Below, piece by piece: positions 2,864-40,665 of a stretch of 64,000 bases of DNA. Within the stretch, counting starts at the first letter, position 1; every line of letters starts with the position of its first letter. Under the pieces are notes generated by a model. That model searched no databases, was not told the DNA's origin, and worked only from the letters and a program-made list of their open reading frames with translations. The position numbers were made by a program, and so were the translations under genes. Source of the DNA: Escherichia coli (GTDB taxonomy: Bacteria; Pseudomonadota; Gammaproteobacteria; Enterobacterales; Enterobacteriaceae); assembly GCF_003334355.1 (NCBI RefSeq), contig NZ_QOWP01000001.1; one strand, written 5' to 3'.

Positions 2864-4381
2864 TTATTTCACCGGACGCATCGCCGGGAACAGAATAACG
2901 TCGCGGATGGTATGGCTGTTGGTGAACAGCATTACCATACGGTCGATACCAATCCCCAGACCTGCTGTCGGCGGTAAGCCATGTTCCAGTGCGGTGACGT
3001 AATCTTCATCGTAGAACATCGCTTCGTCGTCACCTGCATCTTTCGCGGCAACCTGATCCAGGAAGCGCTGCGCCTGATCTTCCGCGTCATTCAGCTCGCT
3101 AAAGCCGTTACCGATTTCACGACCACCAATGAAGAACTCAAAGCGGTCTGTGATTTCCGGGTTAACGTCGTTACGACGCGCCAGCGGAGAAACTTCTGCC
3201 GGATATTCAGTAATGAAGGTCGGCTGAATCAGATGTGCTTCTGCCACTTCTTCGAAGATCTCGGTAACGATACGGCCCAGACCCCAGCTCTTCTCAACGT
3301 GGATGCCGATAGATTCAGCAATCGCTTTTGCAGAGTCGAAGTTGTCCAGATCCGCCATGTCGGTTTCCGGGCGATATTTCTTGATCGCTTCACGCATGGT
3401 CAGTTTTTCGAACGGTTTACCGAAGTCCAGCGTCACGTCGCCGTAGGTCACTTCCGTCTTACCGAGAATATCCTGTGCCAGAGTACGGAACAGCGATTCG
3501 GTCAGCTCGATCAGATCTTTGTAATCTGCGTAAGCCATATAGAGTTCCATCATGGTGAACTCTGGGTTATGACGTACGGAAATACCTTCGTTACGGAAGT
3601 TACGGTTGATTTCGAATACACGCTCGAAGCCACCGACCACCAGACGCTTGAGGTACAGTTCCGGCGCGATACGCAGGTACATGTCAAGATCCAGCGCGTT
3701 ATGATGGGTGATAAACGGACGCGCAGCCGCACCGCCTGGGATCACCTGCATCATCGGCGTTTCAACTTCCATAAAGCCGCGATTTACCATGAACTGGCGA
3801 ATGCCAGAGAGGATCTGCGAACGCACTTTAAAGGTGTTGCGGGATTCATCGTTAGAGATGAGATCCAGATAACGCTGACGATAGCGCGCTTCCTGATCCT
3901 GCAAGCCGTGGAATTTGTCCGGCAGCGGACGCAGTGCTTTGGTCAGCAGACGCAGCTCGGTGCAGTGGATAGACAGTTCGCCGGTTTTGGTTTTGAACAG
4001 TTTACCTTTCGCGCCGAGGATGTCGCCGAGATCCCATTTTTTGAACTGCTCGTTGTAAACGCCTTCCGGAAGATCGTCACGGGCAACGTACAGCTGAATA
4101 CGACCGCCAACGTCCTGCAGGGTAACAAAAGAGGCTTTACCCATAATACGGCGGGTCATCATGCGGCCAGCAACGGCGACTTCGATGTTCAGCGCTTCCA
4201 GTTCTTCGTTCTCTTTACCGTCGAATTCTGCGTGCAATTGGTCAGAGGTATGATCGCGACGGAAATCGTTCGGGAAGGCAATTCCCTGCTCACGCAGGTT
4301 CGCCAGCTTCTCACGACGCGTTTTCAGTTCATTGTTAAGATCGACTACCGCGTCAGCGCCCTGTGCGTGTTGTTCAGACAT
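2864..4381 (-). CDS. lysS: Lysyl-tRNA synthetase (class II, constitutive)
   Basis: 505-aa [29 protein letters not shown]...; class II aaRS motifs; immediately downstream of prfB. Confidence 0.95.
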
Positions 4382-11509: not shown

Positions 11510-11690
11510 TCGCATCAGGCATTTATCGCCTGATGCGACGCTGACTCGTCTTATCATGCCTGGGATTTGATACCTTTATCACAACAGGGGCGAGGCCCGT
11601 AAGTCGGATAAGGCGTTCACGCCGCATCCGGCGGTTGCGCTCCGATGCCTGATGCGACGCTGACGCGTCTTATCATGCCTACAAAGGCAC
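11510..11690. repeat. REP/BIME cluster (several repetitive extragenic palindromes)
   Basis: Repeated gcctgatgcgacgctg(a/g)c(t/g)cgtcttatcatgcct and ggataaggcgttcacgccgcatccggc units in alternating orientation. Confidence 0.85.
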
Positions 11691-38015: not shown

Positions 38016-38153
38016 GTTGGATATTCCGAATTAAGTATCTGATGCAGAGACTATATCGCGGGATTGTTATTAGCGGAAATTGATAATATTAATTGGCAAT
38101 CAGAAAAACTAATAAGAGAGAGGCCAGAGAGTATTATCTGGCCTCAGCGTTGA

Positions 38154-39014
<861 letters not shown>

Positions 39015-39204
39015 TCAATATTCCTTTTCAACTGACTCAAAATGGAGAAATACACTCCGCCGCCTTATGACGGGCAGTCTGACAAGGGTAAACAATAAAG
39101 CATAATTTTGCCAAATAGATCACAGATTTCTCATCTGAATCACCTTGCTTTTGGCGAAAAAATCCCCGCAGAGCGGGGCTCAGACAGATATCAATGTGCG
39201 CTTT

Positions 39205-39310
39205 GTCATGCCGGATGCGGCGTGAACGCCTTATCCGGCCTACAAAAACCTGCAAATTCAATATATTGCAGGATACGTGTAGGCCTGATAAGCGTAGCGC
39301 ATCAGGCAAT
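39205..39310. repeat. REP pair (BIME) in the mscS-fbaA intergenic region
   Basis: tgccggatgcggcgtgaacgccttatccggcctac and gtaggcctgataagcgtagcgcatcaggc in inverted orientation. Confidence 0.85.
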
Positions 39311-39321
39311 TTTGCTTTTGG

Positions 39322-39348
39322 CGAAAAAAAGACCCGCAGAGCGGGCCT
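39322..39348 (-). terminator. Rho-independent terminator downstream of fbaA
   Basis: Minus strand reads GGCCCGCtctgCGGGTCttttttt. Confidence 0.7.
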
Positions 39349-39371
39349 TGAGATAAGCAGAAAGGAATATC

Positions 39372-40451
39372 TTACAGAACGTCGATCGCGTTCAGTTCCT
39401 GGAATGCTTTCTCCAGACGAGCGATCATCGAAGTCTGACCGGCACGCAGCCATACGCGCGGATCGTAGTATTTCTTGTTCGGCTGATCTTCGCCTTTCGG
39501 GTTACCCAGCTGACCCTGCAGATAAGCTTCGTTCGCTTTGTAGTAGTTCAGAACGCCTTCCCAGGTTGCCCATTGGGTATCGGTATCGATGTTCATTTTT
39601 ACTACGCCGTAGCTTACGGAGTCTTTGATTTCCTGAGCAGTAGAACCGGAACCACCGTGGAATACGAAGTTCAGGCTGTTGTGCGGCAGGTTGTGTTTCT
39701 TGGAAACATATTCCTGAGAATCACGCAGGATGGTCGGAGTCAGAACCACGTTACCCGGCTTGTAAACACCGTGTACGTTACCGAAGGACGCTGCGATGGT
39801 GAAACGCGGGCTGATTTTGCTCAGTTCGGTGTATGCGTAATCAACGTCTTCCGGCTGGGTGTACAGTGCAGAAGCGTCCATGTGGCTGTTGTCCACGCCG
39901 TCTTCTTCACCACCGGTGCAACCCAGTTCGATTTCCAGAGTCATGCCGATTTTGGACATGCGCTCCAGGTATTTAGAGCAGATTTCGATGTTCTCTTGCA
40001 GAGATTCTTCAGACAGGTCGATCATGTGAGAAGAGAACAGCGGCTTACCGGTAGCTGCGAAGTGTTTTTCACCCGCGTCCAACAGACCGTCGATCCACGG
40101 CAGCAGTTTCTTCGCGCAGTGGTCAGTGTGCAGGATAACCGGAACACCATAATGTTCAGCCATCTGGTGAACGTGATGCGCACCAGAGATCGCGCCCAGG
40201 ATAGCAGCACCCTGCGGAACGTCAGATTTCACGCCTTTACCAGCGATAAAGGAAGCACCACCGTTGGAGAACTGAACGATAACCGGCGCTTTAACTTTAG
40301 CAGCGGTTTCCAGTACGGCGTTGATGGAGTCAGTACCGACGCAGTTTACTGCTGGCAGTGCGAAGTTGTTTTCTTTTGCTACCTGGAAAACTTTCTGTAC
40401 GTCATCACCAGTGATTACGCCAGGTTTTACGAAATCAAAAATCTTAGACAT
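39372..40451 (-). CDS. fbaA: Fructose-bisphosphate aldolase class II
   Basis: 359 aa from MSKIFDFVKPGVITGDDVQKVF; the ORF track is extended 28 codons upstream. Confidence 0.96.
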   Translation of the reverse strand: MSKIFDFVKPGVITGDDVQKVFQVAKENNFALPAVNCVGTDSINAVLETAAKVKAPVIVQFSNGGASFIAGKGVKSDVPQGAAILGAISGAHHVHQMAEHYGVPVILHTDHCAKKLLPWIDGLLDAGEKHFAATGKPLFSSHMIDLSEESLQENIEICSKYLERMSKIGMTLEIELGCTGGEEDGVDNSHMDASALYTQPEDVDYAYTELSKISPRFTIAASFGNVHGVYKPGNVVLTPTILRDSQEYVSKKHNLPHNSLNFVFHGGSGSTAQEIKDSVSYGVVKMNIDTDTQWATWEGVLNYYKANEAYLQGQLGNPKGEDQPNKKYYDPRVWLRAGQTSMIARLEKAFQELNAIDVL

Positions 40452-40665
40452 GTCTCTTGTCCTGTATCGTCGGGCCTTATACTCGTCATACTTCAAGTTG
40501 CATGTGCTGCGTCTGCGTTCGCTCACCCCAGTCACTTACTTATGTAAGCTCCTGGGGATTCACTCTCTTGTCGCCTTCCTGCAACTCGAATTATTTAGAG
40601 TATGAAAAATTGCGTGCTCTAAAAGCGCGCTGAAACAAGGGCAGGTTTCCCTGCCCTGTGATTTT

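Follow-up and report, generated by a model that had tools for sequence, protein, structure and literature searches.

Between the genes fbaA and mscS of Escherichia coli, a copy of BIME-1 (also RIP or RIB), a member of the bacterial interspersed mosaic elements (BIMEs), stands between two nearly identical transcription terminators, and the question raised by this locus is how the terminator came to be doubled. We addressed this question in a 64,000-nt stretch of E. coli contig NZ_QOWP01000001.1 (assembly GCF_003334355.1), hereafter the window, the positions of which are used throughout; the window is K-12-like, the region is identical to that of MG1655, and addition of 3,030,793 to a window position gives the coordinate in NC_000913.3. 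BIME-1/RIP/RIB elements have been described before, as have the IHF site that they carry and their location at 3' ends of transcription units. The comparison of this locus with its counterparts in other genomes and with other BIME-1 sites leads us to conclude, with considerable confidence, that the repeated terminator is a target duplication that arose upon insertion of BIME-1 at the fbaA terminator in an ancestor within Escherichia and was later remodelled by recombination. The features on which the argument is built are the following.

39372-40451, minus strand: fbaA coding sequence, with the stop codon 22 nt upstream of the copy B hairpin
39312-39348, minus strand: copy B, the proximal, fbaA intrinsic terminator, 37 nt (repeat search, terminator scan, folding)
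39181-39311, minus strand: BIME-1 body, 131 nt (Rfam ES036, alignment to 17 other BIME-1 copies)
39145-39180, minus strand: copy A, the distal duplicate terminator, 36 nt (repeat search, terminator scan, folding)
39145-39311: presence/absence unit, 167 bp, consisting of one terminator copy and BIME-1
39015-39371: fbaA-mscS spacer, 357 nt, holding both repeat copies
38154-39014, minus strand: mscS coding sequence, with the start codon 131 nt downstream of copy A
38120-38145, minus strand: the terminator of mscS itself, unrelated in sequence to copies A and B (terminator scan, Term-seq)

Two copies of one terminator

A repeat search detected in the spacer an exact 18-nt direct repeat (39145-39162 and 39312-39329) and, adjoining it with a one-base offset, a 24-nt repeat of 88% identity (39157-39180 and 39325-39348); because the exact and the inexact repeats are contiguous, the segments 39145-39180 (copy A) and 39312-39348 (copy B) are true copies of each other. 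Their alignment consists of 18 identical nucleotides (TTGCTTTTGGCGAAAAAA), a 1-nt indel in an A-run and a further stretch with 15 of 18 matches, that is, 33 identical positions, and the chance expectation for an exact 18-mer pair in a spacer of 357 nt is about 1e-6. The preliminary description of this DNA had reported near-identical direct repeats 166 bp apart; the repeat stands, its start-to-start distance is 167-168 nt, and the coordinates given there, 39147-39180 and 39313-39347, were off by 1-2 nt.

Read as RNA from the minus strand, copy B forms a 9-bp stem (hairpin 39329-39349; -14.1 kcal/mol, z = -5.0) followed by 7 U (U-tract 39324-39330) and then by CGCCAAAAGCAA, and copy A forms a 6-bp stem (hairpin 39164-39178; -11.6 kcal/mol, z = -2.1), after which come A and 6 U (U-tract 39157-39162) and then the same CGCCAAAAGCAA. 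In both copies, a GC-rich stem-loop directly precedes a U-tract on the transcribed strand, which is what defines an intrinsic terminator, and the terminator scan and the folding concur with the earlier observation of a GC hairpin with a T-run on the minus strand in each copy. A G·U pair in the stem of copy B is replaced by C-G in copy A, with both sides altered and the stem kept, a two-sided change that, at the sequence level, is consistent with maintenance of the distal hairpin. In Rfam, no terminator or small RNA family matched the repeat region besides ES036, which represents the BIME-1 L linker, and weak naRNA4 matches corresponding to REPs (repetitive palindromes of extragenic DNA).

The 3' ends of the transcripts were taken from published Term-seq data for MG1655 (Adams et al. 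2021, eLife, PMC7815308, supplementary file 1), obtained in LB at an optical density (OD) of 0.4, in LB at OD 2.0 and in M63. These data supply the 3'-end mapping that had been proposed as a check on the two copies and place 3' ends in both U-tracts.

MG1655 3070119/3070118, window 39326/39325, minus strand: fifth and sixth U of copy B; primary, fbaA, in all three conditions (160,555 reads at LB OD 0.4, 54,607 at LB OD 2.0 and 120,854 in M63; PMC7815308)
MG1655 3069950, window 39157, minus strand: last U of copy A; orphan, at LB OD 2.0 only (44,902 reads; PMC7815308)
MG1655 3068909, window 38116: primary 3' end at the mscS terminator

Thus, both copies yield 3' ends in vivo, with the copy A end prominent in late growth, and the primary fbaA ends in the U-tract of 39312-39348 bear out the initial assignment of the fbaA-adjacent copy as the terminator of that gene. 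The two copies are on the same (minus) strand, downstream of fbaA and upstream of mscS. The distal copy had been placed just past mscS, which is incorrect: it lies upstream of the mscS start codon, and mscS ends at the separate terminator at 38120-38145.

The BIME-1 between the copies

In transcription order, the sequence between copies B and A resolves into the following parts.

39308-39311, minus strand: AATT, before the Z1 REP
39279-39307, minus strand: Z1 REP, GTAGGCCTGATAAGCGTAGCGCATCAGGC
39244-39278, minus strand: L linker, with an IHF-type core, ATTCAATATATTG, at 39256-39268
39210-39243, minus strand: Y REP, GCCGGATGCGGCGTGAACGCCTTATCCGGCCTAC
39181-39209, minus strand: external motif, 29 nt, the right end of the element, somewhat diverged

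The Y and Z1 REPs are in inverted orientation, as detected by an inverted repeat search, in agreement with the two inverted REPs already noticed between the copies. Their typing as Y and Z1 also draws on the consensus sequences of these REP types. Rfam ES036 matches 39244-39286 with 47.3 bits, against a gathering score of 37.6, the L core CTGCAATATATTGAATTT is exactly the same in 18 other BIME-1 sites, and ATTCAATATATTG, when read against the IHF core TCAANNNNTTR, conforms to it and is a predicted IHF site. The combination of Y and Z1, which was used for REP typing here, is the described composition of BIME-1 (PMC3333891).

The 29-nt stretch at 39181-39209 is a repeated motif: the median E. 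coli genome has 13 places that match it, and the K-12 derivative ER2796 has 21. Its interpretation as a unique sequence was rejected, given that it is repeated genome-wide and corresponds to the BIME-1 external motif; a donor locus elsewhere for copy A together with this flank was also sought, and none was found, the flank being that same repeated motif. From 18 aligned sites, an extended BIME-1 consensus was derived, TGAGAcTGATGACAAACGCAAAATTGCCTGATGCGCTACGCTTATCAGGCCTAC-N7-CTGCAATATATTGAATTTGCATG-TTTTGTAGGCCGGATAAGGCGTTCACGCCGCATCCGGCATGAACAAAGCGCACTTTGTCAACAATCTGA, the ends of which are imperfect inverted repeats (TGAGAcTGATGACAAAC and the reverse complement of its partner, CTCAGATTGTTGACAAAG). 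At fbaA, only GCAAAATT is left of the left external motif, its outer 17 nt being replaced by the U-tract and host sequence.

Polymorphism and ancestry of the fbaA-mscS unit

A word-11 blastn search with copy A and its flank (E <= 10) over 5,426 complete E. coli genomes found the motif at 1-3 places per genome (median 2) in 5,425 of them, and all matches listed are at the fbaA-mscS spacer; the place totals do not resolve the number of three-copy alleles in E. coli. Of the 5,426 genomes, 3,726-3,782 (~70%) carry the full arrangement, with MG1655 and O157:H7 and O26:H11 strains among the listed examples, and another ~1,640 genomes (~30%) match the query through a single retained terminator only. 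Listed examples of the latter include ATCC 25922 and 536, both of phylogroup B2. The sampled short alleles are exactly 167 bp shorter and have one terminator with a B-type hairpin; they occur on at least two flank haplotypes, with strain YJR differing from the window by 5 single-nucleotide polymorphisms per kb and the B2-type strains by 15-21. This variation agrees with the abstract of Bachellier et al. 1997, which reportedly speaks of "excisions of a whole BIME-1" and of presence or absence among strains.

The polarity of this polymorphism was assessed with a protein-anchored outgroup scan covering one genome per species, in which 80 mscS loci were kept, with E. albertii, E. fergusonii and Salmonella not among them by name. 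In some 50 species of other enterobacteria, fbaA and mscS are separated by 158-218 nt, mostly 175-192 nt, and this spacer includes a single terminator right after fbaA and no REP; the genera with this spacer include Citrobacter, Klebsiella, Raoultella, Enterobacter, Kluyvera, Kosakonia, Buttiauxella, Phytobacter, Pluralibacter and others. Because these species have one terminator and no REP, the single terminator is, judging from the spacer comparison, ancestral in the enterobacteria, and the second terminator and BIME-1 are derived features that arose within Escherichia. The junctions are identical in E. coli, E. whittamii and Escherichia sp. E1V33, and therefore the insertion either occurred once or spread by recombination.

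Further rearrangement of the unit is apparent within Escherichia. BIME-1 is usually described as single-copy, and in Escherichia sp. E1V33 (L008, 1974-2500) the spacer is 527 nt long and alternates three terminators with two BIME-1s, the tandem unit measuring ~168-170 nt; this terminator-BIME-terminator-BIME-terminator array is a product of unequal exchange. In E. coli PapM-32-1 (L216, 321-678), the distal copy is a mosaic, the 5' arm of which is of the A type and the 3' arm of the B type, followed by 7 T. The existence of precise deletions, an expansion and mosaics implies that the two copies act as recombination substrates through which the unit is deleted, expanded or converted.

Two additional observations pertain to this spacer in other records. 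Sixteen records labelled E. coli match an E. whittamii distal-region query with >=99% identity over the best-matching stretch. In Kosakonia oryziphila (L076), the fbaA-mscS spacer is 2,123 nt long, and ~1.9 kb of it interrupts the hairpin of the fbaA terminator between GGTCCGCAAAAT and AAAATGTGGGCATTTTTT, a further case of a mobile insertion choosing this terminator.

The same footprint at other BIME-1 sites

A wider survey, a metagenome scan with the L core, yielded 36 distinct sites; 19 of them proved to be genuine copies of BIME-1. The arrangement consisting of a site-specific hairpin, BIME-1 and a similar hairpin, usually with a U-tract, recurs at fruA, mog-satP, metE-ysgA, chbG-katE, rsmS-mscK, gldA-yijF and mngB (where the BIME-1 downstream of the gene is also located between two similar hairpins), among others. 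When the 40 nt outside the left and right element boundaries were compared at 18 sites, with 306 cross-site comparisons, the same-site flank similarity exceeded all 306 cross-site pairs at 4 sites and was at or above the 99th percentile at 6; a permutation test of the summed flank score gave p <= 5e-5, whether fbaA was included or left out.

Clean pairs of empty and filled alleles, with one hairpin in the empty allele and two in the filled one, are available for four loci, namely, fbaA-mscS and the three below.

metE-ysgA: empty, CCGGGTGGTAATACCACCCGG; filled, CGGGTGGTAACACCACCCG-BIME-CGGGTGGCAACGCCACCCG
mog-satP: empty, ATCCCCCCGAGCGGGGGGATC; filled, ATCCCCCCAGGCGGGGGGATC-BIME-TATCCCTTCGAGCGGGGGAGCT
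rsmS-mscK: empty, AAAGGGCGGCATCACTGTCGCCCTTT; filled, GGGGTCGCTAAATGTCCCC-BIME-GGGGCAACTAAATGTTGCCCC

These pairs confirm that the target duplication is real at metE-ysgA, mog-satP and rsmS-mscK. At these three sites, which we denote canonical, the duplication extends from hairpin foot to hairpin foot (19-22 nt) and the first copy is without a U-tract, so that BIME-1 joins the untranslated region at the 3' end (3'UTR); the element termini are constant (TGAGA...TCTGA) and complete. The alleles available for comparison at fruA-psuK, chbG-katE and gldA-yijF yielded no such pair, because their spacers have been replaced or have diverged, or carry a further insertion.

The survey also brought up two unusual sites. 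Metagenome contig OLIF01000062.1 (L103, 1263-1414) carries two L-linker units 134 nt apart in tandem, with Y-type REPs on both sides, an atypical tandem BIME made of BIME-1 linkers. In E. coli 2016C-3878 (L087), downstream of lpdA, the transposase gene of IS621, an insertion sequence (IS) of the IS110 family, adjoins the BIME-1 external motif; IS elements are known to target REP/BIME sequences, and the placement of IS621 fits this preference.

Origin of the duplication

Under the proposed scenario, BIME-1 would have inserted at the fbaA terminator and duplicated its target, replacing the single terminator with terminator-BIME-1-terminator; both copies would have retained or regained the hairpin and the U-tract, which would give the K-12-type strains with two tandem intrinsic terminators. 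Subsequent recombination between the copies, made possible because these are direct repeats of 36-37 nt, would remove the 167-bp unit precisely, double it or produce mosaics. More generally, we are inclined to regard BIME-1 as a transposon resembling MITEs (miniature transposable elements with inverted repeats) that integrates at terminator hairpins and generates a structure-defined, foot-to-foot duplication of 19-37 bp, a view held with less assurance than that of the duplication at fbaA.

Several observations weigh against this scenario. The duplication at fbaA is 37 nt long, comprising the hairpin, the U-tract and 12 nt that include CGCCAAAAGCAA, compared to 19-22 nt elsewhere, and the element at fbaA lacks the 17 nt with which the BIME-1 consensus begins on the left (TGAGACTGATGACAAAC), an equal length of host sequence, TCTTTTTTTCGCCAAAA, standing in their place; because the fbaA duplication is atypical in this manner, one has to assume an additional event, which would be gene conversion or a non-canonical junction. 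In E. whittamii (L009, 2140-2500), the distal hairpin is degenerate (GGCCGCCAGGATAGAGGGGA), with TTTTTTCGCCAAAAGCAA intact. The distal 3' end survives curation in one of the three growth conditions, and the RNA ending at copy A could be a stable processing or exonuclease-trimmed product rather than a product of termination. The order of events within Escherichia also bears on this point, given that the short alleles (B2-type, L006 and L007) could be either ancestral empties or secondary precise deletions. Finally, no insertion event has been directly observed, and no enzyme is implicated by the present data.

Two routes to the atypical left end at fbaA can be envisaged. The switch to host sequence occurs at a shared GCAA, where host CAAAAGCAA resembles CAAACGCAA of the element, and the first route would be an atypical, microhomology-guided insertion junction at this GCAA. 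In the second route, gene conversion from the distal copy would have restored the U-tract after the first hairpin; the mosaic in PapM-32-1 shows that exchange between terminator copies does happen, and selection on the highly expressed fbaA would favour a restored U-tract.

As to how the duplication was made, we tentatively suggest an integration stagger from hairpin foot to hairpin foot followed by fill-in: staggered cuts at both feet of an extruded hairpin or cruciform, once filled in, would duplicate the whole palindrome. The constant and complete termini at the canonical sites argue for enzyme-made ends. Both BIME-1 termini read outward ...AATCT(S)A, at a distance of 1-3 nt from the foot of the hairpin. 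The Y1 transposase associated with REPs, TnpA_REP, cuts single-stranded DNA (ssDNA) between C and T at any CT that lies no more than hundreds of nucleotides from a functional REP, is able to rejoin strands, and has been found to cleave and rejoin BIME ssDNA in vitro (PMC3333891); cutting by this enzyme between C and T in the ...AATCT termini would be a possible route.

The alternative that fares best is template switching during replication (copy choice) in place of a staggered enzymatic integration; we consider it almost as probable as the stagger, with neither of the two reaching an even chance. The nascent strand would leave after the terminator at GCAA, copy BIME-1 elsewhere, return at the 5' foot of the refolded hairpin (ATCT) and copy the terminator again. 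Such a path accords with the microhomology at both fbaA junctions, where, in addition to the GCAA similarity, target TTATCTCAAGG resembles the BIME-1 end AATCTGAGG, with the truncation of the left end of the element exactly at the GCAA homology, and with the fact that the feet of a refolded hairpin adjoin each other. Against it, the termini at canonical sites are constant and complete, as expected of defined, enzyme-made ends rather than of variable switch points.

We find it improbable that the long arrangement was ancestral in Escherichia, with an ordinary tandem or slippage duplication copying the terminator after BIME-1 had landed beside it and the short alleles arising as secondary deletions. 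The two copies clearly give rise to precise deletions, expansions and mosaics, the short alleles are found on at least two flank haplotypes (YJR and the B2-type strains), and the left junction at fbaA is non-canonical, all of which such a history would accommodate; however, hairpin-BIME-1-hairpin alternates with a single hairpin in empty alleles at three other loci, the flank similarity is significant over 18 sites, all non-Escherichia genera have one terminator, and separate, unrelated duplications exactly around BIME-1 at each locus are improbable. The suggestion that the ~36-nt motif is a dispersed, SPRITE-like mobile terminator cassette shared by several units including mscS, which builds on the surmise in the preliminary description that both units may use copies of one module and has in its favour the two near-identical functional terminators 167 nt apart, can be dismissed for E. 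coli, inasmuch as the sensitive blastn search over 5,426 genomes that had been called for found the motif at 1-3 places per genome and, among the matches listed, nowhere away from the fbaA-mscS spacer, and both copies are downstream of fbaA whereas mscS ends at a different terminator.

Transcription through the doubled terminator

Most fbaA transcripts would stop at copy B, the first of two tandem intrinsic terminators, and read-through RNA would include BIME-1 and stop at copy A, just before the mscS promoter region. Extensive structure is predicted for the read-through RNA between the fbaA stop codon and copy A (-83 kcal/mol, z = -5.5), and the last 91 nt of the fbaA transcript, up to copy B, were identified as a ProQ ligand by a three-hybrid assay (PMC7192607). 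As a working model, we regard as most likely a primary terminator with a back-up that keeps fbaA read-through and BIME-1 out of the mscS promoter, with the insulating effect deduced from the layout of the locus.

This arrangement resembles tandem ("fail-safe") intrinsic terminators in that two hairpin and U-tract signals follow each other on the same strand behind a gene of very high expression, and in that both signals are used in vivo according to Term-seq. It differs from them in that the fbaA pair consists of copies of one sequence, made by insertion of a mobile element, and in that the second terminator is dispensable in ~30% of strains.

Downstream of copy A, the following features are apparent.

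39079-39124, minus strand: conserved block TGTGATC-N4-TTGGCA-N18-TACCCT, directly downstream of copy A
39057-39124, minus strand: the block, then a hairpin of differing sequence, then a U-rich run, in nearly every genus; in E. coli, the hairpin and U-rich run after the block are CCGTCATAAGGCGGCGG AGTGTATTTCTCC

The block is invariant in ~55 spacers from other enterobacterial genera and species and is the probable promoter region of mscS. Together, the block, the hairpin and the U-rich run could represent a promoter plus a leader with an attenuator-like structure; RNAalifold yields no consensus structure for the mscS leader across genera because the hairpin region fails to align.

Other elements in the window

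The spacer between pgk and fbaA (40486-40605, minus strand) gives a weak Rfam match to V_AS5 (38.9 bits, compared to a gathering score of 96), and GTGAATCCCCAGGAGCTTACATAAGTAAGTGACTGGGGTGAGCG in this spacer resembles an ERIC/IRU repeat. A Term-seq "orphan" 3' end, MG1655 3071314 (window 40521), falls within this element, and the fbaA-mscS spacer of Intestinirhabdus alba (L030) holds a similar one. Elsewhere in the window, the Rfam matches at gathering level are those below, all of which are to be expected in this part of the K-12 chromosome.

25190-25373: 6S RNA (ssrS)
26022-26172: Sib antitoxin RNA
11602-11679: naRNA4 (REP-derived RNA)

Relation to known elements and implications

With the known BIME-1/RIP/RIB elements, the fbaA insert shares the Z1 REP, the L linker with its IHF core, the Y REP and the right external motif, as well as the location at the 3' end of a transcription unit and the presence/absence polymorphism among strains; it differs from them in being flanked by a 36-37-nt duplication of the host terminator and in the loss of the left external 17 nt. 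Similarly to MITEs and other small non-autonomous transposons (Correia, ERIC, RUP), BIME-1 is small (~165 nt), ends in inverted repeats that match imperfectly (TGAGAcTGATGACAAAC ... GTCAACAATCTGA), lies between direct duplicates of its target and shows an empty/filled polymorphism. In contrast to the fixed 2-9-bp stagger of those elements, the BIME-1 duplication measures 19-37 nt and is set by the whole terminator hairpin, and the presumed enzyme family of BIME-1 (Y1/HUH, IS200/IS605-like TnpA_REP) classically makes no target duplication. The likeness to the ssDNA transposition of IS200/IS605 and of RAYTs (REPINs) consists in the REP hairpins with a 5' GTAG at fbaA and in the ...AATCT at both BIME-1 termini, given that TnpA_REP cuts ssDNA between C and T near a REP (PMC3333891); unlike the present sites, that pathway predicts no target duplication, and a foot-to-foot duplication of the hairpin needs an extra or a different step.

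According to a review, REPs and BIMEs do not display MITE signatures (PMC3184786), and the mechanism of their dissemination has been called unresolved (PMC8266576). A related precedent with a different geometry was described by Di Nocera et al. 2013, who reported REPs of other species inserted within small palindromes (PMC3733652). In the accessible literature, to which Bachellier et al. 1997 does not belong, there is no mention of a hairpin-length duplication, or any target duplication, for REPs or BIMEs.

At the level of the locus, the scenario explains a common polymorphism of E. coli, in which ~70% of the genomes have two terminators and an IHF-type element between fbaA and mscS and ~30% have one; because fbaA is very highly expressed and the element is located beside the promoter of a stress channel gene, this polymorphism may affect read-through, 3'UTR isoforms and the insulation of mscS. 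If the scenario is correct, fbaA is the best-preserved example of the footprint, special in that both copies are complete working terminators. By itself, the fbaA locus is of modest interest, and it is the generalisation to other BIME-1 sites, where the footprint recurs, that is of real interest for REP/RAYT biology. A rule for annotation follows, namely, that paired similar hairpins around a BIME-1 represent one old terminator and its copy. The doubled terminator hairpin, with empty and filled alleles at four loci, is a concrete and testable constraint on the spread of REPs and BIMEs: if the proposed scenario is true, integration would have to involve a stagger guided by a hairpin or cruciform, a step that the canonical IS200/IS605 pathway without target duplication does not predict, and hairpin-targeted integration would explain why BIME-1/RIB elements are located at the 3' ends of operons and transcription units.

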